A stretch of 64,000 nt of DNA. Origin: a virus. Its lineage: Duplodnaviria > Caudoviricetes. Below, piece by piece: positions 16,376 to 53,927 of the stretch (positions within the stretch are counted from its first letter, which is position 1; each line of letters begins with the position of its first letter). A program made the position numbers and the translations under genes. Where the stretch lies: IMG/VR virus record IMGVR_UViG_3300013382_000001, positions 34,185 to 98,184 of that record. One strand, written 5' to 3'. The notes beneath the pieces are model-generated. The model did no database searches. It was not told where the DNA came from and worked only from the letters and a program-made list of their open reading frames with translations.

Positions 16376-16778
16376 ATGATTATGATAGGACGGGCTAATA
16401 TATTAAATAATGTTTCGGGGGGGGGGGGGGGGGGATCATTGTTGATATCAAAAAGGATATAGACCTTCCAATCAAAGTTGATTTTATACCAACATTTGTT
16501 GGTATAAATGATAAAACATATAGTGGGTAACTCTTTCGAGATTTATATTAGGTTGTAGTGATGTATACATTATAAATACTGATTTACCTCAAAGTATTTT
16601 GTCGGAAGATGTTCATATATCTTATAAATTTACTGACGCGTTAGATTATAGAACTAAAATGATTTGGGTGTATTCAACCACATCTCAAATGTTGAATAGG
16701 TATATCGATAACGGATCTATATATTCAATATCGCCTATGTCTGATATAGATTTCTTACTTATATGTCAAACGAATTAA
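16376..16778 (+). pseudogene. Poly-G interrupted tail-tip-like gene (MIGRANILNNVSGGG...), currently out of frame
   Basis: AAGGAG RBS; leader, then G18 (16417-16434). Continuation GIIVDIKK...TYSG lies in the -1 frame. A further shift at ggg 16525-16527 leads to VTLSRFILG...ICQTN*. Confidence 0.6.
16417..16434 (+). repeat. G18 homopolymer
   Basis: Directly visible. Confidence 0.9.
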
Positions 16779-16799
16779 ATTAATAAAAGGAGGTATTAA

Positions 16800-17696
16800 A
16801 TGGCTAAATTTTGCGGAGGCTTCAAGTTTAACCCAACAAGCCTCAAGTTGATAAAGGGGATTCTTTGCCTTTCCGATGCTCAAGATGCCGATATAACAAA
16901 AGCCGTGACTGGCTGCGGGCAGATGTGGGATGGAGAGACATTTAAAATTGTAAAAGTCGATGGTTATAAACCATGCATTACATTGAAAACAAATGGTCAT
17001 CCTGTTCAAAATATACTTATAGGAAATTGCGGTATTAGTTTGGATGGTGAATTCTTTATGAAGGACTCATCCACACAAGCCGTTAGTGTAGTCAACGGTT
17101 ATATTTTGAAGATTACAGTTATTCCATCATCTGCACAAGTTGTAGTAATGAACGAAGCTCAAGAGGTCATTCAGCCAACAGGCATTAATACATACACTTT
17201 GAGTGACATTGATGCAAAATATAGTGTGACTGTCAGTGAAAAAGGATATATTGGACAAAGTAGAACAATTGTGAATAATCAAAACCAGAGTTTGATTTTG
17301 ATGTTAAGTAATGTTCTGTCACTTTACAATGGTAGCATTGATATTCAAAACAAGGCGACTTATGGCGATGTAGACCAATATGTAGTATCGTTCCCTACTC
17401 CAATTGCATTTGAAACAGGTCAACAATATCAAGTAACCTTTGATCATAAAAAATATATTGTGACAGCGCAAAGTGCAGCAAACACTGATGTAACAGGTTC
17501 TTATACGCTTGTATATTTAGGTACTACAAATGGTGATATTAAAATTGGTACAGCTGGAACAATTGAGAATCCATCCTTCACTGATTATCCATTTATGTTG
17601 AAAACTAAGATAGATGATAAAGGTGAATTAGAATCTACATCGATTTCTGCTACTAAAGCAGGTAATTATGAACTTAAAATTATTCCATGGGAATAA
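16800..17696 (+). CDS. Hypothetical virion-associated protein (Ig/PEGA-like segment)
   Basis: AAGGAGG RBS; LKITVIPSSAQVVV...YSVTVSEKGY pattern. Confidence 0.5.
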   Translation: MAKFCGGFKFNPTSLKLIKGILCLSDAQDADITKAVTGCGQMWDGETFKIVKVDGYKPCITLKTNGHPVQNILIGNCGISLDGEFFMKDSSTQAVSVVNGYILKITVIPSSAQVVVMNEAQEVIQPTGINTYTLSDIDAKYSVTVSEKGYIGQSRTIVNNQNQSLILMLSNVLSLYNGSIDIQNKATYGDVDQYVVSFPTPIAFETGQQYQVTFDHKKYIVTAQSAANTDVTGSYTLVYLGTTNGDIKIGTAGTIENPSFTDYPFMLKTKIDDKGELESTSISATKAGNYELKIIPWE

Positions 17697-17725
17697 AAAG
17701 ACAGAGAATCAACTCTGTCTTTTTT
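17695..17725. terminator. Bidirectional intrinsic terminator between convergent modules
   Basis: aaaaagacagag-aatcaa-ctctgtcttttt, with A and T tails on either side. Confidence 0.8.
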
Positions 17726-17907
17726 CGGATTCATTTAGATTCTATAATTGTTACATCTTTTATAGCATTTTCCTCTTTGGTCTTATGCCCCCATCATGCG
17801 ATTATTTCGCCCTAATACAATATGGACTATTATCTGCAAAAGCAAATAATGCAACATCTGGTTTACATAAACGGCATGTTTTACATACGCACGCATTGTT
17901 ATGAATG

Positions 17908-18390
17908 CTAATGGAGTTTTTTATCTGTTGGCAGTTTGACACCATTAGTACTACCGAATCCCCCATCTTTTCGTTCGCTATCAATCGTCATAATTTCTTC
18001 TTCTGTATATTCTTCAATCACTTTTTTTGGATTCGGAATAAGTACCCCTTGTGCAATTGCTTGAGTCAGATCAAGATTATAAGGTTTGTCTGTTGTGTTC
18101 TCTAAGCACACAATTATTTCCCCTCTATACCCACTATCAATAACGCCTGCTCTAAGTGCAATACCTTGTGAACCAAGTGAACTACGTTCCTTGAGAATCA
18201 TGCTATATTCTTTATCCATAGCCATAATAATACCAGTCGACAACTTTGCCACCATATGTGGTTCGAGCGTATATTGTAATTGAGACTGATTAAAATAGTA
18301 AAAATCTAATCCTAAATCTTCTTCCCTCCCTGTTGGAATTGTTGCTGTAGGTAAGCACTTAGCGAACTTAATTGTAGTAACATCTCTCAT
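17908..18390 (-). CDS. dut: dUTPase (trimeric type)
   Basis: GLDF, RSSLG, GVIDSGYRGEI, IAQG, RKDGGFGST motifs. Confidence 0.92.
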   Translation of the reverse strand: MRDVTTIKFAKCLPTATIPTGREEDLGLDFYYFNQSQLQYTLEPHMVAKLSTGIIMAMDKEYSMILKERSSLGSQGIALRAGVIDSGYRGEIIVCLENTTDKPYNLDLTQAIAQGVLIPNPKKVIEEYTEEEIMTIDSERKDGGFGSTNGVKLPTDKKLH

Positions 18391-19048
18391 AAAATTCGTT
18401 ATCCTCCTGTTCTTTCTTTATTTCTCGAATTGTATCAGCGTAAGCTTCGGCTGCATTAATACAAAATCTTACCAAACCATCATTAAATTCATTCCATGTG
18501 TAGTCACATATTGTTGTGGTATTCCATGGTTGTAAAATTTTAATAACGGCAAATGGTGGATTTTGCTTTAGCATAAACTTTTCTAGCGTTTCTGGTTTAT
18601 CATCAATGACGATATCTGCATCAAGCCTCCACTTTTCTTTCATGCAGATAATTTGGCTTGGTTTGATAAACGGAAACAACTCAAAAAAGCGGTTTAATTT
18701 AGCTGTAGCCGTTTTATAATGGGTATCCGTACAAATTATTAAGTCGATATTTTTGTGGGCATTGAGTGTATTTAACGCAGTTTTGATGGTTGGTGAAACA
18801 GTAATATTCTGCCAAAAGATATCATCAGCTAAAACATCCCAGAATAATTTTTTATTACTCGGATTAAGACGCTCTTCAATATCCCAAGAAGTTACCATTG
18901 ATTTATTGAGTGACTTATCGTGTTCATCGTCTAAAATAGCGTACTTATAACTTTGTGCCCGTCGTTTTTTATAAGTTGTAATCCAGTTTTCCACTAAATC
19001 CCATATACAATCATCAATATCTATCATTATGGTAATTTTGTCATACAT
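18368..19048 (-). CDS. 5'(3')-deoxyribonucleotidase (NT5C-like HAD)
   Basis: IDIDDC motif I and IVIDDKP motif IV. Confidence 0.8.
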   Translation of the reverse strand: MYDKITIMIDIDDCIWDLVENWITTYKKRRAQSYKYAILDDEHDKSLNKSMVTSWDIEERLNPSNKKLFWDVLADDIFWQNITVSPTIKTALNTLNAHKNIDLIICTDTHYKTATAKLNRFFELFPFIKPSQIICMKEKWRLDADIVIDDKPETLEKFMLKQNPPFAVIKILQPWNTTTICDYTWNEFNDGLVRFCINAAEAYADTIREIKKEQEDNEFYERCYYN

Positions 19049-19653
19049 TTTTTTTCTCCTTGATAATAATGGTCTAATTCTGCCATGCTCATAAGATGGT
19101 AAATTTGAAGCCCGGCCTTTTCAATAGTGTCATTTAAATTGTTAGTAACTGCAAATGTATATTGCAAATTATCAAATTTTTTAACATCGTTTGTAATTCT
19201 AGCTCCGATAGTTTCGTCATCATCTCCTCTTATCTCCATACGTGCAGCACGAACATAAACACTTGCATAAAGATATATAGTTAAAAGCTCTTTATTTAAC
19301 CCATATTTTTCTTTATATTGTTTCAGAGTTTCAATTCCATCAGGGTCAATAATATAAATGTCTGAATTTTCAACTTGTTCTTTTGTTGCACAATATTTAT
19401 ATCCGTCAAATTCTGTATAGGCAACCTTATCCTCGAGAGCCTCAAATTCCTCTTCTGATATAAAAATATGTCCTTTTTCACCCTCAAATCTTGGTGGACG
19501 TGTGGTATAAGATTCTAAAACCTTCATATCAAAATTTTGTGCTACAAAGTTTGCAATCGATGTTTTACCACATCCCGATTCTCCGACAAGTAATGTCAAT
19601 ACTTTTTTATCATGATTTCTCATAATAATATTAACCATTTTTTGACTAATCAT
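19027..19653 (-). CDS. Guanylate kinase-like protein
   Basis: GESGCGKT P-loop, SYTTRPPR, E.GH.F. Confidence 0.85.
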   Translation of the reverse strand: MISQKMVNIIMRNHDKKVLTLLVGESGCGKTSIANFVAQNFDMKVLESYTTRPPRFEGEKGHIFISEEEFEALEDKVAYTEFDGYKYCATKEQVENSDIYIIDPDGIETLKQYKEKYGLNKELLTIYLYASVYVRAARMEIRGDDDETIGARITNDVKKFDNLQYTFAVTNNLNDTIEKAGLQIYHLMSMAELDHYYQGEKKCMTKLP

Positions 19654-19662
19654 AATTCCTCC

Positions 19663-20004
19663 TTAATCTTCCCATTCTTCCACTAAAATTAAGATTGTAT
19701 TGTATTCATCATCATTTGTAGCAGGGTTAAAATAAATTCCAACAATATCTTTGAAGGTAATTGCTCCTAAAAAATCCCTTTCTTTATTGCATATTGTTAT
19801 GCCTTCAGTTTTTAAAACAGTTAAATATGATTCAATCATATCTTTATGAATACGAGTGGCGAAATAATACTCTTTAAATTCAACATCATTTGCATTAATA
19901 TATTTAACTAAATAATAATTATCTACATTCATCATCTTTTCCACCTTCTTTCTTGCGATAATGTTCAAGCCATGCTTTTTCTTGAATTGTGTGTTCCATT
20001 CCAT
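19663..20004 (-). CDS. Hypothetical protein (start may be downstream)
   Basis: ORF in operon context. Confidence 0.45.
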   Translation of the reverse strand: MEWNTQFKKKHGLNIIARKKVEKMMNVDNYYLVKYINANDVEFKEYYFATRIHKDMIESYLTVLKTEGITICNKERDFLGAITFKDIVGIYFNPATNDDEYNTILILVEEWED

Positions 20005-20170
20005 AGAAAGCTTTATAATTCAACCAATAATAGTGTTGCAAATCATATTCATCTTGACTTAAAGTAATGAAATTTACATTTCTTTGTGCGCAAAATTCCT
20101 CAAAAGTCTTAGCAATCTTAGCTTTGAATTGTTTGTTGTTTTTCTTGCGTTTATTGTGACTGTAGCTCAT
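19919..20170 (-). CDS. Hypothetical protein
   Basis: AAGGAGG RBS; upstream TTGACA promoter-like site. Confidence 0.55.
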   Translation of the reverse strand: MSYSHNKRKKNNKQFKAKIAKTFEEFCAQRNVNFITLSQDEYDLQHYYWLNYKAFYGMEHTIQEKAWLEHYRKKEGGKDDECR

Positions 20171-20234
20171 ATTGTACCTCCTTTATTTTGTCACGAATAT
20201 TAATAATAAACGAGACAATTTGTCAAGGGAAAGA

Positions 20235-20642
20235 TTATTTATCTTTCCCTTTTTTCTTATGCGCTTTACGGACATCTTTAAGTTCAACCCAATGATTCTT
20301 GTCGTTGCGATAATCCTTAAGTTCCCAGTCATTGAACAACTTAGCCACTTCATCATTGCTCATGAGCTTCTTCAGTACACAAAACGCCAAGCCTGCATCT
20401 GGGTTGTAAAGGGTATCCTTTGGGCATACATTACGAGTTTCTGTACCATCGCTCCAAAAGACGATTGTGGCAGGATTATTGTAAAGAATTCTTTCAATAT
20501 AAACTTTGTTACCTAATACTCCATATACATCTTTTACATAAATTGGTGATAAAGTGCCTCCATATTCTGCTTTTTCTAATGGTTTAGTGTAAATAATTTC
20601 ATCCTTCATTTTGTTCTCCTTTCTTCTTATCCCATTTATCAT
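20235..20642 (-). CDS. Conserved phage hypothetical protein
   Basis: I.YNNPATIVFWSDGT.T...C...D.Y....G motif; probable start at MKDE. Confidence 0.65.
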   Translation of the reverse strand: MINGIRRKENKMKDEIIYTKPLEKAEYGGTLSPIYVKDVYGVLGNKVYIERILYNNPATIVFWSDGTETRNVCPKDTLYNPDAGLAFCVLKKLMSNDEVAKLFNDWELKDYRNDKNHWVELKDVRKAHKKKGKDK

Positions 20643-21216
20643 ATAACCATGTATTATATATTTTATACCGCTCTTGGATATTTGTCAAGTCAATTTTTAC
20701 AAATGGCAACCACTTTTCTACCATTTTGCAGCAATTCATCTCACAACATCCACACCGATACACACAATTGGGAATCATCATATCGGCAATCAACGGTTCA
20801 ATTTTATGCAACTCATACTTAAACTCTTCCCAAAGTTCCCTTGTTTCTTTACTCGCTTGGAAACACAATCTTTTTCTGCTCGTGTCAATTAAGTGTTGCA
20901 CATTTAACTCACAACGCATAGATACAGGGGAATCTTGGGGTAGAGTATGTCTATCTACCCCTGTCCGATCAGTGCGCTGTGTCTGTACGAACTTTTCCCA
21001 TTTGTGTCGAACAAGATGTGTCGCTACCCATGTTGGAATATTCTCAAAGTCTACGCGAATGATTAAATCACGAATTGGAGAATGTTCGGCGGTCAAGATT
21101 GATTGCTTAAATTTATCACTTGGTTCTTTGGTAAGAGGCGGTTTGCTGACTGTAAATCGACAATCATTAAGTACCTCATTCCATGAGCCTTTTAAGTTAA
21201 TATTAGTTATTTTCAT
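20599..21216 (-). CDS. thyX: Flavin-dependent thymidylate synthase (ThyX-like)
   Basis: EHSPIR, ATHLVRH, RLCFQA..ETR, P.CVYR.GC motifs. Confidence 0.7.
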   Translation of the reverse strand: MKITNINLKGSWNEVLNDCRFTVSKPPLTKEPSDKFKQSILTAEHSPIRDLIIRVDFENIPTWVATHLVRHKWEKFVQTQRTDRTGVDRHTLPQDSPVSMRCELNVQHLIDTSRKRLCFQASKETRELWEEFKYELHKIEPLIADMMIPNCVYRCGCCEMNCCKMVEKWLPFVKIDLTNIQERYKIYNTWLYDKWDKKKGEQNEG

Positions 21217-21464
21217 ATCAATACCTCGCCCTTATGTTCAGACTTATCGTTCTTTTCAAAATGTAAGGTAATATCTATACTACCATCATCATTTTTTACA
21301 ATGTCGTGGTCTGTGATAGTATATAACTTTGACACTCGTTCTGGAATATATTCTTTTGCCCACGAGTAAACTTTAGCAGTACTTGGATTGAGGTCATGGG
21401 TTACAAGAACATAGCCAAGAATAAGAGCAAGGATGATGATAATAATTATTAAGATTTTTTTCAT
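21213..21464 (-). CDS. Small membrane-anchored protein
   Basis: N-terminal hydrophobic helix; GGAGG RBS. Confidence 0.55.
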   Translation of the reverse strand: MKKILIIIIIILALILGYVLVTHDLNPSTAKVYSWAKEYIPERVSKLYTITDHDIVKNDDGSIDITLHFEKNDKSEHKGEVLI

Positions 21465-21474
21465 TTAGACCTCC

Positions 21475-22989
21475 TTAATCGCATTTACTATAGCCACATG
21501 CTTTGCAAAGATTACATCCGCCCTCGAACACTAATGGTTCGCCACATTCTGGGCATATAGGTTTAAGTGGTTTGATGTGTCCTTCTTCGTTGCCATCAAC
21601 ATATTTATCTTCTTCTTGTGTTACAGGGGAACTAATTGTCAATGGTTTTTCTTCGTATTCTTCTAAATCGAAATCTGCAAAACAGCGTTCTTTAATCTTG
21701 TCACATAAGTCCTCTAATGCATATCCAATAGCACTTGGACAACTTGAGCCTTTGCTTGTGTCATGTTTTTTATTAGTACGAGATACATAAGCCGTGCAAG
21801 GTTTAATTGATTTACATTGGTCAATAATATCCTCAACAGACACTCCTGCTCTAAGTGCTAATGACATAAGACGAGAAATAAGTTGAAGATTTCTTTCGCA
21901 TGAGCCGCTAGACCCTACATTGATAAATGTTTCCATTGGCTCACCTGTTAATTCATCAAAATATGTTTCAAAATGAATTGAGCCACAACCTGTTTGCAGC
22001 TTACGCTTCGCACCAATAAGGTCATCAGATACAGATAAAATCGTACCACGAGAAAGTTTTGTCTTGGGTTTTTCGTTTTGTTCTGTTTCTTTGTCATCTT
22101 GAGTTGTCAAAATCCCAAGTCTCTTACATCCATCTCGAAAAATTGTTACACCTTTTAAGCCACAGCTCCAAGCATACAAGTATAGTTCTTCAATCTCTTC
22201 TTGAGTGGTTTCCTTTGGAAGATTTACAGTAGAGCTAATTGCAGTATCAATATGTTTTTGAATAACTGCTTGTGTCTTAATTCTATCTCTCCAATGGATA
22301 TCAGCACTCGACACAAAATAATCTGGGAGTTCACCCATGTTGCCTGTAATTCTGCGATATTCTTTTACAATATTTGAAGCAATTTTATATGATTCATTCA
22401 AATTGTCAGTTCTACGAGTGTAAGATAAAGCGAACTCAGGCTCTATCCCGCCCGAGCCACCGACCATTGTACTAATACTCCCGTTGGGAGCGATAGATAA
22501 AAGAGTACAATTCCTAAAATATAATGCACCTCTTTCTTTTAAATTTTGGGGTGCGTGATTCTGAAATATTCTTGAATTTTGAACTAAATAACCATTAAAT
22601 CTAGGATAGTTACCATTTTTTTCTCCTCTATCATTATTCGATACAATTGCTTCAGCCATCATAAACATGAATAAATCATCTGTAAATCGGATAGCATCCT
22701 CACTGCCATATTTTAAACCTAATGCCATGAGCATATGTGCGTAATTAAATACGCCAAGCCCAATATTTCGCCAATCATAAGCATTTGCCTTATACGTATC
22801 TAATTCTTTTGGTAATCTTGGAGCATTTTCTTCAATAATGTCATCAAGAGCATTTGAAGCAATATTAATGGCTTTTTTAAACTCTACAAAATCAAAGTAA
22901 GCATTAGGTGTAAATTTTTCTTTAACAAATTCATATAGATTCAATGAACCTAAATTACAGCAAGTCTTTGCTTTAAGTGGTTGTTCTCC
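21475..22989 (-). CDS. nrdJ: Class II (B12-dependent) ribonucleotide reductase, exon 2
   Basis: GEQPL..CNLGSLNL, R.IGLG, SIAPNGSIS, SGGIEP, AISSTVNLP; TSCPD-like SSCPSAIG domain; C-terminal CPECG..EGGC..C..CGYSKC. Confidence 0.9.
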   Translation of the reverse strand, partial: GEQPLKAKTCCNLGSLNLYEFVKEKFTPNAYFDFVEFKKAINIASNALDDIIEENAPRLPKELDTYKANAYDWRNIGLGVFNYAHMLMALGLKYGSEDAIRFTDDLFMFMMAEAIVSNNDRGEKNGNYPRFNGYLVQNSRIFQNHAPQNLKERGALYFRNCTLLSIAPNGSISTMVGGSGGIEPEFALSYTRRTDNLNESYKIASNIVKEYRRITGNMGELPDYFVSSADIHWRDRIKTQAVIQKHIDTAISSTVNLPKETTQEEIEELYLYAWSCGLKGVTIFRDGCKRLGILTTQDDKETEQNEKPKTKLSRGTILSVSDDLIGAKRKLQTGCGSIHFETYFDELTGEPMETFINVGSSGSCERNLQLISRLMSLALRAGVSVEDIIDQCKSIKPCTAYVSRTNKKHDTSKGSSCPSAIGYALEDLCDKIKERCFADFDLEEYEEKPLTISSPVTQEEDKYVDGNEEGHIKPLKPICPECGEPLVFEGGCNLCKACGYSKCD

Positions 22990-23889
22990 CAAGTACAACC
23001 ATAAACTTTAGACTATATCTTATCCCTCAACTTTACTTGCTAGGGCAATCGCACTTATAGAGTTTTGAAACTTCCAATCTTCTTCATTCATCCATTTTGG
23101 TCGTTTCTCGTATCCCAGATATAACTTATAAATCATACTTGGAACAATATATGGTTTGATTAAATTTATGAATTTACAATAATCTTTTGTTCTTAATCTG
23201 ATTCTATAACTATTGTTTCTTTTTATTGGACAAAATTCTATATCAAACTTTCTATGTATTTCCTTACATATCATATTTATATTTTCTAAAGAATATCTAT
23301 CTGTGCAAATATCAACTCTTCTATTTTTGATATGTCCACTTTGAATACCTACCAAACAAATATATCCATCTGACATATACCAATTCGCTATTCCGTTTGG
23401 AGTCAACCAATTTATCGCATTTTTTGTTATTATTCTGTGTTTATAGTCATCATAAAAATTATGATATTTTTTTGCGAAATATGGGTGTGCGCTAATAACA
23501 AACTCCCAACTCTCTTTATGGGTGATATTATGCATGTCAGTATAAGATTTATAGTGTTTAATATAGCTATTAAATGTATTACATGAATTAATATCCTCAT
23601 ATAATTTATAAATAAAATCTCTATAAATAGATTTTATCCTAAATGCTCTTTTAGTGACACCAGAATCAATATGTCCATCTCCAATAATCAAACCTGTTAA
23701 ATATCCTTTTAACTCACTTGTATTCATTTGCGTTATAACCTCCTATAACTTTGCTATTTAAACTCTAACTTAGTCGTTGAACCTTATTCTGTATTTCAAC
23801 AGAATCTTGGCTGCTGATTAGCTGTCGCTTTCCAGCAATTCACGATTGATTATTTCATAAAATTACTTTTATGCCGTGCAGATTGGTTT
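22990..23889 (-). mobile_element. Group I intron with homing endonuclease, in nrdJ
   Basis: P1 ccgtgU/gcacgg, P aattgctggaa, Q aatcagcagcc, R ttcaacgacta, S agatatagtct, terminal G. Splicing restores NPC|GEQPL. Confidence 0.92.
23020..23727 (-). CDS. LAGLIDADG homing endonuclease (double motif)
   Basis: YLTGLIIGDGHI and GIANWYMSDGYI; own GGAGG RBS; located between intron elements R and S. Confidence 0.88.
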   Translation of the reverse strand: MNTSELKGYLTGLIIGDGHIDSGVTKRAFRIKSIYRDFIYKLYEDINSCNTFNSYIKHYKSYTDMHNITHKESWEFVISAHPYFAKKYHNFYDDYKHRIITKNAINWLTPNGIANWYMSDGYICLVGIQSGHIKNRRVDICTDRYSLENINMICKEIHRKFDIEFCPIKRNNSYRIRLRTKDYCKFINLIKPYIVPSMIYKLYLGYEKRPKWMNEEDWKFQNSISAIALASKVEG

Positions 23890-24684
23890 ACACGGATTGC
23901 AAGTTTCTATGCTATATTCGTCATCAAACTCTAAGAAATTATGGTTTCTAAATTCATCAACAAAGATACACCCTGGCTCTCCATAATCCCATACAACTTT
24001 CATCATAAGTTTGTATAAGTCAATAGGCACAATATCATATTCTACAATGTGTCCATTGTAATCGTATTTTTTATGGAATGTTTTTACCGTTCCATCATAA
24101 TAATATTCTTGAACAGCTGTCATAAACTCATCATCAATTTCCATAGAAAGATTCGCTTTTGTGACAGCATCTAAATCTGTTTTAAGCTTGATAAAGCTTT
24201 CAGCCTCTTTATGGTTGATGTCTAAGCTAATCATCAATGCACCTTTTCTTGCGCCACCTTGTGAAGTTCCCTTTGTCACAGTATTGAACATTTCAATAAA
24301 TGGGATAATACCATCAGATTCATAATTATCACCGATTTTAGTTCCTTTTGGTCTAAGTTTCGACATTGAGATGCCTTGCCCGCCTTGATATTTAAAAGTA
24401 ATGCCAACTTCTTTTAGGACATCCATAATTCCTGCATAGTCATCTGGAACGTATCCTGCACTGAAGCAATTATAAAAATTTCCACTGTTAGGAATGCCAC
24501 GATTTGCAAGAACTCTTCCTCCAAATAAAAATTTTTTATCCTTGATTAATTGTCTAAGTTTTTCATTGTTACCACTTACCCTATCAAGCCATTTATCGAA
24601 TGTCTCATTGTTATATTGATATTTTTTATGCCAAATATCTTGTCCAATTTGGTTATCTTCTCCTAGCCATTCTTCTATTCTCAT
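23890..24684 (-). CDS. nrdJ: Class II ribonucleotide reductase, exon 1
   Basis: FGGRVLAN, NCF, GGGQG, LRPKG, QGGARKGALM, GEPG; ends at TCNPC. Confidence 0.9.
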
Positions 24685-25253
24685 CTACATCCCTCCAATT
24701 CTCTCGCCACTACTGGGCGAATTTGTGTTTTAATTTTATATGAAACTGCTTGAACGGATATTCCTTTCATTGCAGCAATTTCAACGCAATTATATCCTTG
24801 TCTAAGGAGCTGAAATAATTCTAAGTGAGTGATTTTGCTATTAGAATTATAGACTTTATTGCTTAGCTTCTTTTCGATATTATTAAATGCTTGACTAAGC
24901 TCTAACTGATTATATTGTTTTTCTTCTTCACCATATAATTCTTGCAGTTCAAATTCATCTCCACCTTCGTTCCGCAAAAGTTTATCAAAAGACACTATCT
25001 GGATGTCTTTAGGAGTGGTTTTACGCTTTTGGCTACGAATATATTTATATTTCCCATTATCAAGAGCCTTGCGAACTAATGTAGATAATGCCCCTCTGTT
25101 TGAATCCCATGCACACACAGCATAACAATAATATTCGAGCAAAATATCAAGCCACTCATCTTCATTCAATCCATTATCATATAGATATTTATATACTAAT
25201 TTTATATTATCTTCTGCAATTTTGCGTTGTTCGTCGGTCATTTTTGTTCGCAT
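24681..25253 (-). CDS. Phage sigma-factor-like transcriptional regulator
   Basis: AEDNIKLVY (region 2-like), WDSNRGALST, C-terminal HTH GYNCVEIAAMKGISVQAVS. Confidence 0.7.
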   Translation of the reverse strand: MRTKMTDEQRKIAEDNIKLVYKYLYDNGLNEDEWLDILLEYYCYAVCAWDSNRGALSTLVRKALDNGKYKYIRSQKRKTTPKDIQIVSFDKLLRNEGGDEFELQELYGEEEKQYNQLELSQAFNNIEKKLSNKVYNSNSKITHLELFQLLRQGYNCVEIAAMKGISVQAVSYKIKTQIRPVVARELEGCR

Positions 25254-27607
25254 TATTTCACCTCCTCTGTCAATAATTCTTTAAGCCAAGTATCTCTAAG
25301 TCTTGTTTCATTTACCTTAAGAGCATTGCTAATCGTTGCAACATCACCAATCTCAACCAACATTTCTTTGGCTCTTGTGAGCGACATATAGCATAAATTC
25401 TTTGATAGCATCCGCTGATGACTTGGATGAGTTAAGAAAATAACCCCTTTAGCCTCACATCCTTGACTTGCGTGACTGGTACAAGCATATGAAAGAAGTA
25501 AATTTTCAAGGTCGGATTTACGATATACAATCATTTCTTCGTCAAATTGCACCCATACGTTACCTTTGTTATCAATATCTCGGATAAAGCCAATATCTCC
25601 ATTGTAAATTGTTGCTTCTTCAGGCTGTTGATTGTTTAAGGTTATAAGTTTATCTTCTGCTTCTAAGACTCTTTTATCATTAGCACCAAATTCGACTTTA
25701 AGTCTATCGATATCACCTTGCATTTGAACCGATGTTATCCAATGTCTAAACCCTTCTTCAGTTAAAGCATGATAGTTGTTCTTTTTGTTAATTACTTTGT
25801 CTCCTATATGATAGTTAAGCACCTCCATTGGAACTCCAAGTGACTTTGGCAATTTACGGCTTGCAATATCGTCAATTGGGTCTGCCGGATTATACTTTTT
25901 TTGAATCGCTTGATTGATAGCATAAGTACCGAACTCACCTTTGTTATATGGCGTAAGGATTAGAATATCCTTAGCACGATACTTTTTTCTAAGTTTATCA
26001 TACTCTTCCAAGACTTGTTCAAGTGGGCTATCATTTACTTGAACAAACTTATAATCTTTAATTTTACTTGCATTTTCGCAATTTAACTCGCCTGTACTTG
26101 TAAGGTATTCTTTCCCATTCCGAGCATCTGAGCCAACTGTAGCAATACCCCCAACACCATAACGGAATACCTTTGTGAGTTGCGCACATGGCACAATATG
26201 TGAATCCATAAGGTCTTGAACTAGATTGCCACATTGAATTGAGGCAAGTTGTGCAGAATCAAATACAAGGATGATTTTACTGCAATCTTCAATATTATTA
26301 AGTAGTGTTGAAAATAAGTTTACATCTACCATTGACACCTCATCAATTACAACTACATCTGTATCGATCATTACACCACTTGCTAATTTGCGGTGAATTG
26401 TATTTGCTGCTCGACCTGTTGTTTCGCGAAGACGCTTAGCTGCAATCCCACTTGGAGCAAGAAGAGTGTAAGATTTGTCATTATCTTCAAGTAAGTCAAT
26501 AAGGGCTTTAACAGAACTTGATTTCCCACTACCTGAACTGCCAATCAACATGCTAAAATCATATTTACATATCAGTTCCAAAATACCCATTTGCTCATTA
26601 GTAAGTGTAATACTATCATTGGAACGATACTTTTCAATATCAACACTCCAAATTTGAGCATTGTTGTTTCTATTTTTTATCGTCTGTGCAATATTACATT
26701 CTGATAAATATGTTGCCATGAGCGACAACTTTTTTGCACCTTCATCATAGTAAATTTTAGCACTTTTTTGCACCAAATCTACAATATATTCATTGAGTTT
26801 TGGATTATATTGATTAATTACACTTGCAATATCGGCAGCATCAATTCTTGTGTTACCATCCTCTTCATTACACTCAAGTAGATAACAAGTTAGATACAGA
26901 CATCTCGCTTCAGAATCTTCCCACTTCTCATCGTGTTCACATATTGCCCTATCTGTATTTTGAAAATCTCGCCCAAGTACATCTATCAGTACCTCGTATG
27001 GCTTGTTATCAATCATGTATTGAGCATTTTTAAGCGTTGAATAAGCCGAGCAAAGTTCCCCACATTCCGAAAATGAAAGTGCATAATCGAGGTTATCAAG
27101 GTGGAGTTTATAATATTTAAACCGCTCATTGACCTTATTGATATACCCTTTTAATCGAATCTCGGCTACATTATGGATATTCTTGTAGTCAATTTTATCC
27201 TGTTCACCCATAAGCACTAAACGAATAAAGTTCGGATATGCCTCATGCACATATTGGGCTTGGCTATTAGTCATAAAAGATTTAAGCATTTCAGCTTCTT
27301 GTTCATCGGTCATTTCCTCGATGTCATCTATGTTAAAATCTTCTATCTCTGGGAAGCCTATTAACCAATATTCATAGCCATATGAACCCGTCTTCTCTTC
27401 GATTTCAATAGTGTATTCCTCTCCCACCTCAAGCAGGCTCAAATCACCTTTTAACGTAAAATTCCCATACTTATTGAGGTGTATCTTATCCATATCTGTA
27501 TTAGCTGGCACACACCCATAGATAGAGAATGTACCATCTGCATTTGTAAATACATTGCGTACTACTTTACAACGGATTTTTATTTTCATGTCTACTCCTT
27601 TCTCCAT
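25253..27607 (-). CDS. RecD2-like SF1B helicase
   Basis: GSSGSGKS, LAPSGIAAKRL, DEVSMVD, LTKVFR, GDKVI, NGDIG, YACTSHASQGCE, Y..LTRAK. Confidence 0.88.
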   Translation of the reverse strand: MEKGVDMKIKIRCKVVRNVFTNADGTFSIYGCVPANTDMDKIHLNKYGNFTLKGDLSLLEVGEEYTIEIEEKTGSYGYEYWLIGFPEIEDFNIDDIEEMTDEQEAEMLKSFMTNSQAQYVHEAYPNFIRLVLMGEQDKIDYKNIHNVAEIRLKGYINKVNERFKYYKLHLDNLDYALSFSECGELCSAYSTLKNAQYMIDNKPYEVLIDVLGRDFQNTDRAICEHDEKWEDSEARCLYLTCYLLECNEEDGNTRIDAADIASVINQYNPKLNEYIVDLVQKSAKIYYDEGAKKLSLMATYLSECNIAQTIKNRNNNAQIWSVDIEKYRSNDSITLTNEQMGILELICKYDFSMLIGSSGSGKSSSVKALIDLLEDNDKSYTLLAPSGIAAKRLRETTGRAANTIHRKLASGVMIDTDVVVIDEVSMVDVNLFSTLLNNIEDCSKIILVFDSAQLASIQCGNLVQDLMDSHIVPCAQLTKVFRYGVGGIATVGSDARNGKEYLTSTGELNCENASKIKDYKFVQVNDSPLEQVLEEYDKLRKKYRAKDILILTPYNKGEFGTYAINQAIQKKYNPADPIDDIASRKLPKSLGVPMEVLNYHIGDKVINKKNNYHALTEEGFRHWITSVQMQGDIDRLKVEFGANDKRVLEAEDKLITLNNQQPEEATIYNGDIGFIRDIDNKGNVWVQFDEEMIVYRKSDLENLLLSYACTSHASQGCEAKGVIFLTHPSHQRMLSKNLCYMSLTRAKEMLVEIGDVATISNALKVNETRLRDTWLKELLTEEVK

Positions 27608-27615
27608 CTATGGGT

Positions 27616-27644
27616 AGTATAACATAGGTCTAAGAGTGTGTCAA
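27616..27644 (-). promoter_or_regulatory. SigA-type promoter
   Basis: TTGACA-17 nt-TATACT. Confidence 0.75.
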
Positions 27645-27647
27645 GTG

Positions 27648-28955
27648 TTATTTTTCAAAATCTACTCTTTCTAATGCTTTTTCAAAGGCACCGATTCCAC
27701 TAAATAAACTTATGACATTCATCCCTGTTATAAAGTCATTAGGATAAGCATCGTGTAAACATTTGTATATCTCTTCAAGCACATTTACGACAATAGAGTT
27801 ACCTGCTTGTTTGTAGAGCTGTGAATTACTATTAACCTTTTTGGCTCTCTCAAAGTCCTCATCGCTAAATACCATAAGTCTATAACATTCTTTTGGAGTA
27901 AGTTTACGGATTCGGAAATCTTTTGGCGTTAATACTTTGGGTTGTCTATTTCCACCTTCCATTGTGTTAAGTGTTGGGGATAAACCATCTGAACCATAAA
28001 CCCTACGAATCTGCTCATTTCCCTTTATATCTAATAATCCAAGCATTTGAATTTTATTATGCTCATTTTCACATAATTCACTCACACTAAATGCTGACTT
28101 ATTTGTATCTATCTGTGGTGTATTGATAAAAAACTGGTCTACTTTATCTTGTTTAATGTAGTACCTCTCTTCAACCTCATTTTCAAGAAAATCTCTTAAT
28201 CTTAATCCATTATCAAAAGGTTTCGGGAATAAACTCGTATCATTTCTATCATAATACTTATTATGTGTGATGTGTCCTGTATAATTTTGGTTATTATCAA
28301 CATCTTCACGCACAGAAATAGCATAAATACGCTCTCTATTCTGTGGAATATCATAATTTTTCGCATTTAACACTTGATAATAAGTATTATACCCCATATT
28401 TTTCATCTCATCAACATAAGTATCAAATACAGGTTTGTGTTTTTTAGATAAGACATTTTTAACGTTCTCCCAAATAACGAATTTTGGTTTACAATGTCTG
28501 ATAATCTCGACCGAATTCCATAAGAGGCTTGAACGAGTTCCAGAACTCTTTACTCCACCATGCTGCTTACCGGAAATTGAAAAACTTTGACAAGGCGATC
28601 CGTGTGTAATCAAGTCAATATTGGTTGGCAGTTTATCAATATCAATCTGTGTAATATCACCAAGATTTAATCTTTCATCTACTCCATGTATAGCACAATA
28701 ACTCTTTACCGCATACTTATCAAATTCACAAAAATTCACTAAATTATAATTCATTTTATACTCCTTATATTCTTTTTTATTATCTTTGCCATTTGTATGA
28801 CTATCTTTTAGGAGTACCCCCCCCCCCCCCGAGCAGCATATCCCACCACAGTTTGCTGTAGTTAGTGTAGTACAAATACCATGAGATAAATCAATTAAAT
28901 CATATGGCGCAAACACACTTGGAATTTTGCCATACTTATCTATCATTTCTTTCAT
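27648..28955 (-). CDS. Circularly permuted C5-cytosine DNA methyltransferase (internal start 28754), with poly-G-linked N-terminal module
   Basis: Motifs II (FCEFD), IV (GSPCQSFS), VI (WENV), VIII (QNRERIY), IX (RKLTPKEC), X (KQAGNS), then motif I (SLFSGIGAFE) at the C-terminus. AAGGAG RBS precedes MNYNL. Confidence 0.88.
   Translation of the reverse strand: MKEMIDKYGKIPSVFAPYDLIDLSHGICTTLTTANCGGICCSGGGGVLLKDSHTNGKDNKKEYKEYKMNYNLVNFCEFDKYAVKSYCAIHGVDERLNLGDITQIDIDKLPTNIDLITHGSPCQSFSISGKQHGGVKSSGTRSSLLWNSVEIIRHCKPKFVIWENVKNVLSKKHKPVFDTYVDEMKNMGYNTYYQVLNAKNYDIPQNRERIYAISVREDVDNNQNYTGHITHNKYYDRNDTSLFPKPFDNGLRLRDFLENEVEERYYIKQDKVDQFFINTPQIDTNKSAFSVSELCENEHNKIQMLGLLDIKGNEQIRRVYGSDGLSPTLNTMEGGNRQPKVLTPKDFRIRKLTPKECYRLMVFSDEDFERAKKVNSNSQLYKQAGNSIVVNVLEEIYKCLHDAYPNDFITGMNVISLFSGIGAFEKALERVDFEK
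28817..28830 (-). repeat. G14 homopolymer (coding strand)
   Basis: C14 on + strand. Confidence 0.9.
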
Positions 28956-28973
28956 CTTTCTTTCAATCCATAT

Positions 28974-31900
28974 TTATTCTTCCTCCACATCTACATAAGC
29001 ACTAAGTATATATTCAAACTCCCCACTTAGCACCCATTTGTCATTAACTTTTTTTCTTTTTTCCTTCGGCTTAAACACGCACTTCATAATACCGCCCATC
29101 ACATATTTGCCGATATTATCTTTTGGTAACGGATGCTCTTCAAAGTATTTCTTATCCATCTTACATTCAATCACACCACCATCATAGAGCCGATAAAGTT
29201 TAACAAATGGTGTGCCATACTTATTGACTTCGACCCCTTGTAGCGCAAAATAATTCATCGGTGCGCTAAGTGTAGTGAGCATTGTATATCCCATAATCTC
29301 GATTTGGTTTTGGATAAGGGCATATTCACTATCTGGTGGAATGGCATGTTGAGCGAATATCTTGCGACAAAGTGCAAGGTTGTCAAGCTGCGAATATTGT
29401 TTTGCGGTTTCTTTATCGAAACAACCTTCAACATCAAAGTCGCATGGCTTCTTGAGCGTCTTCTTTGTACCATAGGTGTTGTAGATTTCCTTAGCTATGG
29501 TGAGCTGGTTAATTGTGCCAAATTGGGCAAAGTAGCCGATACGGATAAGTTTGTCAAGTTGTGTTTTGTTAATGCTTAAAGATTTAGCATTAGTCAAGAT
29601 ATCAAAGAAATCTTGCGGTTGTTCATTTTGTGCATACTCGTATAAGTTGTCACCAATTTGAATATTCATGTCTTTAATTGAGCCAATGCCTTTATAAATT
29701 GAATTTTCGCTTTTATCCATCCAAAAGTCGCCTTTTGATTTACCAAATACAGGAGGTAAAATCTTGAATCCTTGTTTAATTGCATAATTTGTAATCGCTT
29801 GGCTTTTAAGTTTGTCTGTTTGGTAAATATTAAAAGCAACAGTCAAGAACTCCAATGGATGATAATATCTTAACCATCCAACCGCATATCCAATCATCGA
29901 GTATGGCAAAGCATGGTTTTCTGAAAATAGATACGAGCTTGCGTCTTCAATAACTTGTATAAAGTTTACAATAAGTCGTTCGGATTCTTCTTTGCTAACG
30001 CCATACTTTTCAAGCATCGTTTTTATGAAACCTTCTTTGATTTGTGGAATAAACTTGTCAGTGCCGGTCTTCTTCGCGAAGCCACGTCTGACTACGTCTG
30101 CCATACCCATTGTATATCCACAAAATTGATGTAGAAAGTTGATAATTTGCTCTTGGTATACTAAGTACCCAAGTGTAGGTGCAAGCAATTTATTCAATGC
30201 TTCATGTCCATTATCTCTATATATTCCTTGTGCCAACTCGTCACGATAACTTGCTCCTGCGGGTCGAATTGCACCATTACCTACCGACATAAGGTCAAGG
30301 TATGAAAAGTTTGAGTTAAGTTTTTTAATCTTTTCAACTGTTTCATCAGAAAAGAGCTGTTTTAAGTACGCTTGTGATGAATCACTCTCCCACTGGAATA
30401 TACAAGTTGTATCTTCTCTAATACTATCCCATACTTTTTTATCATTAAAGTCAATGTTTTCTGGTAACAGTCTATCAATACCAAGCAAATCACATGTTTG
30501 ATTGATTAAACCCACCGCATCCAATCCCAAACAATCCAGCTTAACATAGTTTAACGAATCAATCTCTTTCATATTAAGCTGCGATACTGGTCGACTATTA
30601 TTAGCTACCGAACACAACCCCACACTGTCATCGAGTGGTATTGGCGATACAATACAAGCACTTGGGTGAGTACCGATTGATACGATTGTTCCTTGAATAA
30701 GATCTACATAACGGAAGATTTCTGGATATTGCTGGCGATATTTTTCTTCATTGATCTCAATGTTATTGGTGATTTCGTTGGCTTCTTGTGGTGTCATATC
30801 AAAAGCTCTAGCCACATCTTTGAACGCACCTTTGAGGGCTACGGTATTAAAGGTAATGATTTCTGAACAATACAACCCTTGTTTTGCATAAAGCAAATCT
30901 CGAACCTTATCTCTATCAGTGTCAAACCAATCAGTATCAATATCAGCAAGCGAAACTCTTTCCACATTCATAAAACGATCGAAGTTAAGATGCCATTCAA
31001 TCGGATCTACGTGTGTAATGCCAAGTAAATAACATATCAACGATCCAGAACACGACCCCCTTGAATAACCATACCCAACACCTTGTTTGCGTAATTCACC
31101 CTTATACATTTCTTCAAGCAAGAAAAAGTTTTGAGATTTGTTATGTCGAATAGCTTTTAATTCGTATTCGATCTCGTCTTTATACTTTTGTGGGTTCGGC
31201 TTAGAGTCTATGCCTCTCCACTTCCACCCTTCAGCAATCTTTTCAAGTAACACTTTATCTGAATCTTCGTACAACTTAGGATACTTAAAGCCTCTATCAA
31301 GCTCAAACGATTCAACCATATTTGCTACTTTATTCGTATTTTCTAAGGCTTGCAACACAACTTCTCGTGGTATGACACCTTGTTCCTCAAACATCTTTAC
31401 AAGTTCATCATAAGTACGCCATACCATATCGAACTCACCTTCGTTATCAAAGAACACCTTTTTTGAGCGTTGTAATAACAATCTAGCGTCCGCATGTTCT
31501 TCGTTAAGTGCATGGGTGTCTGTGCCTACAAGCAGTTGTAAGTTATACTTTTGCGACAAATCATAAAGTAATTTGTTATACTCTGTTTGTCTTGGACTTG
31601 GATGTTGTGCAATCTCTAAGAAACAGCGTTCTCGATTTGTTATATAAAACTGTAATAATGCAAATTTCAATTCTGGGTCATTCGATGCAAAGATGCCCCC
31701 TAAACACCCAGACGAAACAATAACATTGTCACTTGTGTTTGTAAGTTCTGCAAACGTGATTCTTGGAGCGAAGTAATAATGCCCGTCGGTTCGATTAAAC
31801 GATATACTTGAGAGTTTATTAAGCTCTTTTACACCATCATAGTTTTTAGCAATAAGCAAACAATGGTAGTTGTCTCTAACTTTTTCTTCGAGTGACTTAG

Positions 31901-46197: not shown

Positions 46198-46343
46198 CTT
46201 CCCACCTTATCAATCGACCAATTAACACTTGGTATTTTACTAAGCTAATACACAAATATGTTGTTGCCCACTCATGAGCAATAGATACACTTATATCCCA
46301 ACAACTATCTGGAAGCCTATCTATCCTTGCTCCAAAATATGGT

Positions 46344-48850: not shown

Positions 48851-48861
48851 TTTTACTCCTC

Positions 48862-49254: not shown

Positions 49255-49255
49255 T

Positions 49256-50510: not shown

Positions 50511-50539
50511 CTTTTATCCTCCTTGATTTATTTTTCTTT

Positions 50540-50568
50540 ATTATAACTTGTATAATGCGAGTTGTCAA
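50540..50568 (-). promoter_or_regulatory. SigA-type promoter (consensus)
   Basis: TTGACA-17 nt-TATAAT. Confidence 0.8.
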
Positions 50569-50618
50569 GGGGTAAAATAAAAAATCTCCTAAAATTTTTA
50601 GGAGAAATTAAATATAGA

Positions 50619-50739
50619 TTAAACACAGAAGCCGAAGCACCCGCCCGACGTTTTCTTCGCCGTCCCGCTCCGCGCGCCCGATCCGCCTTCATTGTTCCAT
50701 CTCCCAGCCGGAAGGGAAAGCGTTCGTTAAACCTCTCAT
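50619..50739 (-). pseudogene. GC-rich collapsed remnant of an MxGxTNA-type tail-tip gene
   Basis: AGGAGGT RBS, MRGLTNAFPSG..., and in another frame ...AKKTSGGCFGFCV*; flanked by hairpins. Confidence 0.4.
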
Positions 50740-50761
50740 ATATAAACCTCCTAAAATCAAT

Positions 50762-50779
50762 GGGAGGGATAACCCTCCC
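50762..50779 (-). terminator. Hairpin after Sak4-like gene
   Basis: gggaggg-ataa-ccctccc. Confidence 0.55.
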
Positions 50780-50791
50780 TTATGTTAAAAA

Positions 50792-51808: not shown

Positions 51809-51819
51809 CTACTCACCCC

Positions 51820-52746
51820 CTACAGAAACGGATTCTTTTCAACTTCAAATGGGTTATTGTTACTCGGAGTTGTAGCCATTGCCTTTAAGCTCTGCTTACC
51901 ACCTTTTGCTTTAGGGATTTTGTTCTTAGATTCTTTCAAAATCTGCTCAAGTTCAACCTTACGCTCTTCGAGTAAGTTCTTAACATCTTTAAGGTCAATA
52001 TATAACTTTTCACCCTTATTATTTACTTGCTCTTCATTGACTGGATCTTCTCCACCAATCACCATCCATTCAACTCTTGTGAATCCTGTGTTAATATCAG
52101 CTTTTCTACCAAAGCCACCAGTAGTAGTAGTTTTCTTCTCGCCATATTCCGTGCTCTTAATTTCGACATAGAACGTTGCCAAAGAGCCAAGTCCATAATT
52201 TTCCTTAAATCCATCGGCAAGTTCCTCATCAACAATTAATGCATGTGGAAGTGCTTTTTCACCATAACCTACGCCAGTAACTTCAACGAGTAATCTACCT
52301 GTCTCTTCTTCATTTCTGTACTCAGGTACAATTTTTGTAACCATACCTTCAATTGCGCCTTCAAACTTTTCCTCTTCTGCCGGTTCGTTAAGGATCTTAA
52401 CACGATTTACATTAAAGCAATCAACACTTGCGATCTTGCCACTCTTTCCAACATAGTCATTAAATCTATTCGTTCGGATTTGCACCTCAATAGGAGTATC
52501 CGTACCACAAACTTGTAATTCTTTTACCATATCAAAGTCGCTATTGGATTTATGGTCTTCTCCTGCAAATTTATCTCTCATATAAACCTCGCAGGTATAT
52601 TCTCCATTTTCGACTCCAATTACAAATCGACCACGCACTGTGTTAAATTCTACGCCATCGTCAAATCTACCATCTACAATCTCTAACTTCTTATCTTTTA
52701 ATCTACCTACTGCTTTAAACTTACTAAATGTTTCTCTAATAGCCAT
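51820..52746 (-). CDS. Putative single-stranded DNA-binding protein
   Basis: Beta-rich, GGFG segment, C-terminal NPF...NPFL tail; lies between Gp157 and Sak4-like genes. Confidence 0.5.
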   Translation of the reverse strand: MAIRETFSKFKAVGRLKDKKLEIVDGRFDDGVEFNTVRGRFVIGVENGEYTCEVYMRDKFAGEDHKSNSDFDMVKELQVCGTDTPIEVQIRTNRFNDYVGKSGKIASVDCFNVNRVKILNEPAEEEKFEGAIEGMVTKIVPEYRNEEETGRLLVEVTGVGYGEKALPHALIVDEELADGFKENYGLGSLATFYVEIKSTEYGEKKTTTTGGFGRKADINTGFTRVEWMVIGGEDPVNEEQVNNKGEKLYIDLKDVKNLLEERKVELEQILKESKNKIPKAKGGKQSLKAMATTPSNNNPFEVEKNPFL

Positions 52747-52760
52747 ATTCTACCCTTTCT

Positions 52761-53045
52761 TTAATAAAAAAAATTCAATAAATCATTTACAATATTTGCA
52801 TATTCTGTTAATTTTATGGTTTTATTATCTATGATTTGCTTGCCAATTAAACCATAATCTTTTTCATATTCATGCTTAAGATTCATATATTTGTTAGCAG
52901 CATCACAAACTTCATCTAACCGTTCTTTTTTCTTTTGCTCCTTTTCGATACGCTCTTGTTCTTTGCGCTCAAGTTCAAGTTCATAATCACTTGCTTCTTC
53001 CTGAGTATTAAACTCTTTGCCATTTACTCTGTAAATTACTTCCAT
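52761..53045 (-). CDS. Hypothetical coiled-coil protein
   Basis: GKEF.T.EEA..YE motif. Confidence 0.55.
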   Translation of the reverse strand: MEVIYRVNGKEFNTQEEASDYELELERKEQERIEKEQKKKERLDEVCDAANKYMNLKHEYEKDYGLIGKQIIDNKTIKLTEYANIVNDLLNFFY

Positions 53046-53053
53046 ATTCTCTC

Positions 53054-53554
53054 CTATTTAAGTTGTAAGTTTTCCTTTTCAATAACTTGCACACCATCAA
53101 TTACAACACCCTGTTTCAAAATTGCATCTTTAAGCTTTGTTTTATTTGGATTTTCTTCGACCTTAATTGTCATATACTCTTGTGGGATTTTAGCTCCTTC
53201 AGCAATTTCAACCTGTTTTGACTTTCGGAATGAAAGGGCGACTCTTGGAGTTTCAAATTTCCTATCTCCGAATAAGAACATCGAGTTTGCAAGATAAGCT
53301 TTAAGTCGTTCGACTTTTTTTTCTTTAGTTTGCCTGCGCTCCTTAAGTGACTTTTCTTCAGCTTTGAGTTGGTCAATATCAGAAAGCAAATTCTTAATAT
53401 AACAACCTGTATTTTCAAGCTTTTGGTCGCGAGATAAGAGCAAATTGTCAATATCTGATTCTTCAAATAGAATCTCGCCCGTTTCCTCATCTACTACCAT
53501 ATCATTCTCTAAGAGTTGATATAGGTCTTTGTCGATTTCATATAATGTGCTCAT
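53054..53554 (-). CDS. Siphovirus Gp157 family protein
   Basis: MSTLYEID, K.EN....IKN, SFRKS..V, IP.EY, K..LK.A...G..I.G. Confidence 0.88.
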   Translation of the reverse strand: MSTLYEIDKDLYQLLENDMVVDEETGEILFEESDIDNLLLSRDQKLENTGCYIKNLLSDIDQLKAEEKSLKERRQTKEKKVERLKAYLANSMFLFGDRKFETPRVALSFRKSKQVEIAEGAKIPQEYMTIKVEENPNKTKLKDAILKQGVVIDGVQVIEKENLQLK

Positions 53555-53610
53555 AGATTACCTCCTTTACTATATTATATCCATAAATTACAATAAATTC
53601 AATAAAGTTT

Positions 53611-53927
53611 TTATGTCCAAGGAGCAACAGATGTTGCCTCATAGTTGCTACCAACGACAATAATATTAGTTGCAAGCTGTCTATTTCCATTTGTATCTGA
53701 TATAATCACATCTTTATAATTTGTAGTTTGAGCAGCATATCTTTTTCCATCATAATCAGTTCCTATAAAAAATTTATAAGAAGTACTATCTGCAACACCA
53801 ATATTATATTTACTATTTATCCAATTCTCCCATGTCATATTCTCATCAGCATAATAAGAACAGTTGTTTACACGAAATGCCCCCCCGAAACACTATTTTT
53901 CGATACCATATTTGTCATTCCTATCAT
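53611..53927 (-). pseudogene. Poly-G interrupted tail-tip-like gene (MIGMTNMVSKNSVSGG...), currently out of frame
   Basis: GGAGG RBS; ATGA overlap with upstream gene; G7 at 53880-53886. One extra G gives ...SGGAFRVNNCSYYADENMTWENWINSKYN... Confidence 0.68.

Follow-up and report, generated by a model that had tools for sequence, protein, structure and literature searches.

Can a run of guanines just inside a phage gene act as an on/off switch for interchangeable tail tips? The question is raised by a 64,000-nt stretch of DNA from a virus of the Caudoviricetes (bases 34185-98184 of the IMG/VR record IMGVR_UViG_3300013382_000001; hereafter the window), in which two genes lying 37 kb apart begin with similar leaders, MIGRAN..VSGG and MIGMTN..VSGG, each followed by a poly-G tract. 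The gene at 16382 on the plus strand (site 1) carries 18 G, the one at 53927 on the minus strand (site 2) carries 7, and both are out of frame at the tract, all of which a sequence-only reading of the window had already noted and which the sequence bears out. In that reading the leader is a common docking peptide, the tract a slippery Gly linker, and the two genes are phase-variable receptor-binding tips. A comparison with public contigs supports the switch at site 2: the tract there is a genuine on/off switch, and both ON (G8, G11) and OFF (G7, G9, G12) alleles are found in nature. The leaders are members of a wider family, and their docking on the tail, as well as the role of site 1, can be stated with less confidence.

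Alleles of the G run at site 2

As assembled, the open reading frame (ORF) of site 2 enters the G7 tract 14 codons past the ATG and meets a stop after 19 codons (Table 1). With G8 the frame is open for 105 aa and with G11 for 106 aa, and the remaining lengths lead to stops after 19-27 codons. A search made with the body only recovered a 105-aa protein identical to the exact predicted G8 product, so that the claim that one more G would restore a protein of about this size corresponds to a product on record; the same cluster also holds 106-, 94- and 75-aa forms. We compared 20 public contigs encoding these forms, which come from seven accession series (ENA, Logan, JGI). All 20 have the same 41-nt leader, and the flanks (300 nt upstream and 560 nt downstream) equal those of the window in 19 of them, the last one having two single-nucleotide polymorphisms. 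On this constant background the run itself differs: counting the window (n=21), G7 occurs six times, G8 five times, G9 seven times, G11 twice and G12 once. The length varies even within one accession series, where SRR1747030/34/38 have G7/G8/G9. Between assemblies, lengths were found to vary over G7-G12 at site 2 and to include G12, G17 and G18 at site 1.

The ON alleles encode the linkers SGGA (G8) and SGGGA (G11), in agreement with the proposal that the slippery run codes for a Gly linker, and the existence of both forms implies that an in-frame change of linker length is tolerated. In the G9 allele the body shares a frame only with a GTG lacking a Shine-Dalgarno (SD) sequence, which accounts for the 94-aa product of the gene callers. 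These cases carry a warning for annotation, as callers split or truncate such genes and the single site-2 locus is on record as a protein of 75, 94, 105 or 106 aa. An apparent division into two site-2 backgrounds, with an upstream gene of 76 aa or 123 aa, was rejected, the DNA being identical and the gene calling alone different.

The contigs also document the phage itself. A single clone, identical over at least 1.3 kb (53000-54400), recurs across seven accession series in different archives, which marks it as a gut phage that is widespread and very uniform.

Table 1. Positions in the window of the two leader genes, their G runs and the neighbouring genes referred to in the text
Feature	Position	Strand	Remarks
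Site-2 leader MIGMTNMVSKNSVS	53887..53927	-	GGAGG 7 nt upstream; ATG overlaps TGA of upstream gene
Site-2 G7 tract (OFF)	53880..53886	-	public alleles G7, G8, G9, G11, G12
Site-2 body	53611..53879	-	one copy of unnamed ~75-aa repeat domain, beta-grasp-like in the model
Site-1 leader MIGRANILNNVS	16382..16416	+	SD 9 nt upstream; alternative in-frame ATG at 16376, 6 nt 5' of the ATG at 16382
Site-1 G18 tract	16417..16434	+	out of frame in the window; in-frame lengths G16/G19
Site-1 body part a	16435..16530	+	31 codons (IIVDIKK...YSG), then stop TAA
Site-1 body part b	16524..16778	+	84-codon open frame in the -1 frame, without usable start
Tail fibre gene, 410 aa from ATG	15118..16350	+	N-terminal coiled coil; C-terminal ~95-aa adaptor (~315-410)
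Two stand-alone adaptor proteins	8600-8953, 8950-9309	+	117 and 119 aa; start MAWTNI and MSLDWKNI
Early gene upstream of site 2, 129 aa, no family	53924..54313	-	in five relatives directly 5' of the Gp157 gene
Sipho_Gp157-family gene 3' of site 2	53054..53554	-	PF05565, E 2e-34

A leader family and its candidate docking site

The likeness of the two leaders extends to their DNA, both sites having ATGATAGGA, six further nucleotides and AATAT, with GTTTC directly 5' of the run. No BLASTP similarity was found between the bodies of site 1 and site 2, as had been stated. Further leader starts in this genome, besides MIGRAN and MIGMTN, are MKGFSN, MLGKTN, MANGWTN, MAWTNI and MISKCN, and MARGWTNS, MAQGWTNS and MKCSTN occur in relatives. 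These genes thus show a conserved N-terminal peptide on bodies unrelated by BLASTP, the arrangement by which adaptor-docked interchangeable tail proteins are recognised. Together, the comparisons support a real family of N-terminal peptides that head otherwise unrelated proteins.

Two more members combine the leader with a G run that is out of frame. At 4306-4609 of the genome, outside the window, MKGFSNIIEKVSSSGG is followed by G5, and G4 or G7 would open 84 codons; this gene lies directly 3' of a BNR-type propeller gene (3246-4295) that starts with MLGKTN and has an in-frame G9 at 3379-3387. In a relative of 99.6 kb (L005, 3005-3371), MKCSTNIYSTGG is followed by G6, where G5 or G8 would open ~110 codons, and the gene comes after a 120-aa MAQGWTNS gene, itself located 3' of the fibre.

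A docking partner for the leader is suggested by gene order. The fibre gene preceding site 1, which has weak matches to PHROG tail and tail-fibre families, ends in a domain alignable to both stand-alone adaptor proteins as well as to fibres in relatives. This adaptor domain is ~95 aa long and has the pattern IPTSAWV ... GATSGNG..TIW ... TIPxI. Leader-bearing genes stand directly 3' of adaptor domains both here and in relatives (MANGWTN, MARGWTNS, MAQGWTNS); in the window, the gene at 9309, next after the adaptor pair, is the one starting with MANGWTN. Site 1 was correctly said to follow a fibre gene and site 2 to lie among early genes, so that an adaptor-bearing gene (the C-terminal domain of the fibre) precedes the first and a 129-aa early gene the second. 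The position of leader genes directly after adaptor domains lends support to the docking idea, which we infer from it.

We also predicted a complex in which the fibre adaptor is present in three copies and the site-2 G8 protein in one. The score was 0.51, compared with 0.00 for the best of three controls, and the runs agreed in at least 72% of the contacts, with a predicted local distance difference test (pLDDT) value of at least 54 for the partner. In the calibration of this score, from which our own alignments and the 3+1 stoichiometry depart, 58 of 80 solved complexes and 2 of 110 mismatches attained the mark, and scores of 0.60 or less were those of 7 of the 80 solved complexes and of both passing mismatches. 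The prediction thus gives weak support to docking of the leader on the fibre adaptor, which is plausible. Of the proposed common docking leader, then, the leader stands as a family, and the docking is putative.

For the body of site 2, an exhaustive HMMER search returned 54 proteins at E<=1e-3. Most of these are long and repeat a ~75-aa unit 2-8 times; the core of the unit reads ITFTIDG..Y.AE.GMTW.EW.NS.YN. The site-2 body keeps every invariant residue and is therefore not decayed. No family covering the repeat domain was found in Pfam or PHROGs, and a DUF6273 identity suggested by the ESM Atlas was dropped after hmmscan did not confirm it. Modelled with the alignment of homologues, the protein reached a pLDDT of 78.8 with residues 1-12 disordered; a single-sequence fold (pLDDT 36) was uninformative. 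Structural matches to the model are of beta-grasp type only (Z 5-6, root-mean-square deviation 2.5-4.1 Å, 62-88 aligned residues), and the tied ones include ubiquitin-like domains, the transcobalamin beta domain and the InlB B-repeat, so that they would indicate a fold class for the body and not a function. Foldseek searches of PDB and BFVD with the same model gave no match at E<=0.001.

One homologue, 84 aa long, is encoded in a phage receptor-binding module together with LRR_5, Mtd_N, beta-helix and DUF6273 genes. The bacterial copies form the C-termini of pilin-like proteins in low-GC gut metagenome-assembled genomes (MAGs), one match having an N_methyl motif. In two contigs with TGA read as Trp, a G run accompanies the same domain: one (L045, 138-392) has the leader MSRRLLLAGQTS, an in-frame G9 and the repeat domain, and the other (L049, 941-1195) has G6 at the N-terminal edge of the domain, at a gene junction. 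These contexts place the site-2 domain among extracellular, recognition-module types, and it has repeatedly gained a G run at its start. The unnamed ~75-aa domain (core GMTW.EW.NS.YN) is common in multi-repeat and pilin-like proteins of uncultured low-GC gut bacteria.

Site 1, methyltransferase tracts and genome background

At site 1 the G18 tract starts 12 codons past the ATG, and the ORF as assembled ends after 26 codons. A second break, AGT GGG TAA (GGG-TAA at 16525-16530), lies between parts a and b of the body, and the GGG at 16525-16527 does not vary: the window and the seven other contigs spanning it all have G3. The run is G12 in one contig (L052), which leaves it in the same OFF frame as G18; in another (L051), G17 with loss of the next A puts the leader and 31 codons in frame as a 48-aa ORF. 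Several contigs of other assemblies stop or start within the run, and runs as long as these are read less reliably than those at site 2; the partial runs at contig ends (14-29 G) are unreliable. Dependence of an on/off state on length therefore holds at site 1 for a 48-aa product only. An open frame of 84 codons is improbable by chance at 34% GC, which argues that part b was coding until recently; its only matches are weak ones to PHROGs of unknown function, and no homologue of 46-147 aa was found for the site-1 body. Exact-pattern scans of viral and metagenome contigs did not find the site-1 leader, nor was a degenerate leader plus G-run pattern found in the viral contigs scanned. Phase switching at site 1 is plausible, and the gene is probably degraded and decaying in this clone. 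The proposal that the G run is an on/off switch thus holds for site 2, with G7-G12 on identical DNA, and at site 1 is qualified by the second, fixed break.

Four runs with this phage, all Logan contigs of one study, were compared over positions 16000-29200 of the window; none of their contigs spanned the G18 tract. In contigs of X1 and X4, the match to the window begins only at 16486 or 16787, or ends at 16254, with unlike sequence beyond, and co-occurring strains seem to carry a different cassette 3' of the fibre gene (16254-16787).

Long G runs also occur in methyltransferase genes. In the window, G14 (28817-28830, minus strand) lies in a 67-codon N-terminal extension of a permuted C5 methyltransferase. 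The X4 contig (depth 9) has G12 at this tract and has lost one nucleotide in the GGG at 28842-28844; this compensating loss, 12 nt upstream in the gene, brings the net change to -3 and keeps the frame. As a separate observation, the X1 contig has 1108 other letters between 28573 and 28599 and many third-position changes over 28421-28760, a sign that the methyltransferase of this strain has a divergent 5' region. A relative (L015, IMG/VR 3300013383_000054) has G13 at 1501-1513 within the S-adenosylmethionine-binding motif of a methyltransferase (MKILDLYCKAGGG...) and G9 at 2585-2593 just before the DLPYG motif of a second one; both runs are out of frame and at the 5' ends of their genes, and the metagenome of origin also gave a G8 site-2 contig. 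No run of 7 or more was found in the four other relatives scanned.

The source contig of 98,184 bp has ends overlapping by ~90 bp, as a circular assembly would, and a GC content of 34%. The genome is of a large siphophage type, with tape-measure, tail and fibre genes on the plus strand at 1-17.7 kb of the window and replication and nucleotide-metabolism genes on its minus strand. The nearest match to its DnaE comes from Clostridioides phage pCD1602_4 (50% aa identity), and an annotated phage collection held no close DNA-level match to the genome. Relatives of the site-2 body domain in MAGs of uncultured gut Bacilli, 'Tenericutes', Clostridia and Erysipelotrichaceae give only a hint of the host. 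Runs of at least 7 are expected ~0.13 (G) and 0.48 (C) times in 64 kb; those observed are G18, C14 and C7, and the chance expectation for a G18 in the window is ~2e-10. Besides these three, the genome has two further runs of at least 7 outside the window. Across the 98 kb, the runs other than G18 and G7 include the G14 of the methyltransferase and the G9 of the leader-family propeller gene.

Near site 2 lie a Lar-type restriction-alleviation gene and a YorF-family gene. Elsewhere on the minus strand, the ribonucleotide reductase (21475-24684) is encoded by two ORFs of 271 and 507 aa, split by a 235-aa LAGLIDADG-like ORF (23020-23727) that is probably an intron or intein-type insertion.

Alternative explanations and known systems

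We consider it reasonably likely that one account covers these observations as a whole: a family of leader/G-run/body genes working as contingency switches, with a putative docking function of the leader and a decaying site 1. Each gene would consist of a leader, M-x-G-x-[TSA]-N ... V-S-G-G, a G run serving as Gly linker, and a variable body. Slippage during replication would alter the length of the run, and one in three length classes would join leader to body. The leader may be the docking peptide for the adaptor domain found at the end of the fibre and in the two small adaptor proteins, in which case the switch would set whether an accessory surface-type, beta-grasp-like domain hangs on the tail. 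Site 1 would be a second copy, longer and less stable, with an extra fixed frameshift. Tail-tip and host-range roles, as originally proposed, are plausible. A bolder version pictures a plug-in tail with a universal docking leader, G-run linkers as switches throughout, the early-inserted gene included, virions of differing decoration in each burst and an OFF leader peptide that may cap the adaptor; taken in full it seems to us doubtful, and we offer it as speculation.

Several points weigh against the contingency-switch account. All tract-length evidence comes from consensus contigs, and all site-2 contigs represent one clone, so that conservation of the body within it is uninformative on selection. 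The ON share is about one quarter of the contigs on record (11 of ~40, with ~29 OFF) and 7 of the 21 measured, close to the one third expected under drift alone. At site 1 the fixed second frameshift means that the G run alone cannot restore the ~130-aa protein. Site 2 lies among early genes, on the opposite strand, outside the tail module and with no adaptor gene 5' of it. In five relatives (Gp157 88-89% identical), a 124-126-aa gene is followed directly by Gp157 with no leader gene between them, and the site-2 leader gene is a lineage-specific insertion of ~370 nt. The complex score of 0.51 falls in a band where predictions that pass are more often wrong than right, and no match in the Pfam, PHROG or structure searches ties the site-2 body to receptor binding.

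Some of these points suit a neutral explanation, in which dispensable moron genes or pseudogene remnants carry G runs that drift with no adaptive role. The frames are roughly random among the ~11 ON and ~29 OFF contigs, site 1 has its second fixed break, the leader genes with G5 and G6 are off as well, and site 2 is absent from the five relatives. We nevertheless regard neutral noise as unlikely: the site-2 body has kept all invariant residues of its domain, the combination of leader, G run and body recurs in unrelated phages and a G run also recurs at the boundary of the same domain, and long G runs, very rare in a 34% GC genome, are yet located just 3' of start codons.

Another possibility is that the switch is as described and its product has no place on the tail, being either a protein targeted to the capsid for ejection or a counter-defence protein switched off in the manner of T2 agt. 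The early region with its Lar-type restriction-alleviation and Gp157 genes would be a fitting location, and one leader on unrelated bodies would also suit a targeting signal such as that of the T4 internal proteins. Contingency loci with which phages evade defence have also been described (bioRxiv 10.1101/2025.10.21.683753). A non-tail product is nonetheless quite improbable in our judgement, as the same type of leader heads large propeller and adaptor proteins in the tail module, following adaptor domains, relatives of the body domain are found in extracellular and receptor-binding settings, and the complex prediction weakly supports docking on the fibre.

Sequencing or assembly error hiding uniform, in-frame lengths would be consistent with the difficulty that long G runs pose for short-read chemistry, with the contigs that break at G18 and with the unreliable partial runs at contig ends. 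It is very hard to maintain at site 2, where runs of 7-9 G are read reliably and G7, G8 and G9 each come from 5-7 independent assemblies, made with different assemblers in different series and with perfect flanks, which makes error untenable there. Finally, the idea that the leader is a tiny gene whose run-set stop position governs re-initiation at the start of the body was rejected for site 2 as scarcely credible, because the first in-frame ATG of the body (M31) lies past the first two strands of the domain, homologues begin the domain right after the Gly run, and fused 105/106-aa forms exist.

If the leader does dock on the fibre adaptor, the contingency-switch account would describe a simple way to vary tail decoration without invertases or retroelements, and would help to predict from sequence where host recognition is variable. 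Our literature search found no paper on a design with a shared leader, a G linker and a variable body, and the known systems each resemble it in part. In multi-tailspike phages with adaptor or N-terminal anchor systems (SP6/K1-5, G7C, CBA120 and Klebsiella KP32-type phages), short conserved N-terminal peptides likewise head differing proteins and are encoded beside an adaptor-bearing protein; those systems are not known to use a repeat-tract switch, and their adaptors have no sequence or fold link to the present one, for which binding is weakly predicted. The internal proteins of T4, which are unrelated, fast-evolving small proteins, share a conserved leader of ~10 aa, the capsid targeting sequence. 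Unlike there, we saw no prohead-protease site or capsid link here, and large proteins of the tail module carry the leader too.

Bacterial contingency loci include poly-G tracts in Campylobacter, Haemophilus and Neisseria as well as phase-variable methyltransferases (PMC4889913). As in those loci, a homopolymer near the 5' end makes a three-frame on/off switch, and the methyltransferase tracts of this phage and of a relative resemble switches of the phasevarion type; unlike them, the tracts reside on a virus that encodes its own DnaE-type polymerase. Contingency loci of T2, T4 and other phages have been reported by Gomez, Barrick and Waters (bioRxiv 10.1101/2025.10.21.683753), who also list poly-G tracts in the methylase gene of BPP-1 and in a baseplate gene of a PB1-like phage. 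The T2/T4 features, namely reversible frameshifting by simple repeats within ORFs, bet-hedging, and accessory or hypothetical genes as carriers, recall the present case. The T2/T4 runs are mostly short (6 or more), scattered in genes and of low frequency in reads, whereas those described here are long, lie at the 5' end, share a leader and differ at the consensus level between samples.

So far, poly-G switching in phages has been published chiefly for Campylobacter phages and, more recently, for T-even phages. The closest parallel is the Campylobacter Fletchervirus, for which hypermutable poly-G tracts in receptor-binding protein genes are described (Sorensen et al. 2021, Cell Rep 35:109214, as cited in PMC12823448, bioRxiv 10.1101/2025.10.21.683753). 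As far as that citing account goes, the G runs there lie within genes, are of similar length (7-11) and toggle the protein by their length, with mixed progeny as a result. The switched genes of Fletchervirus encode receptor-binding proteins, whereas in the present system, in a Firmicutes-type large siphophage of the animal gut, receptor binding would be a putative role. The natural allele series from G7 to G12 extends the same principle to an uncultured gut phage whose lineage is of a low-GC Gram-positive type. The present system differs from Fletchervirus in that the run sits at one fixed position, where it links a shared leader to small, unrelated bodies, with one copy among early genes, and this combination of shared leader, G-run linker and swappable body is a distinct and repeatable design.

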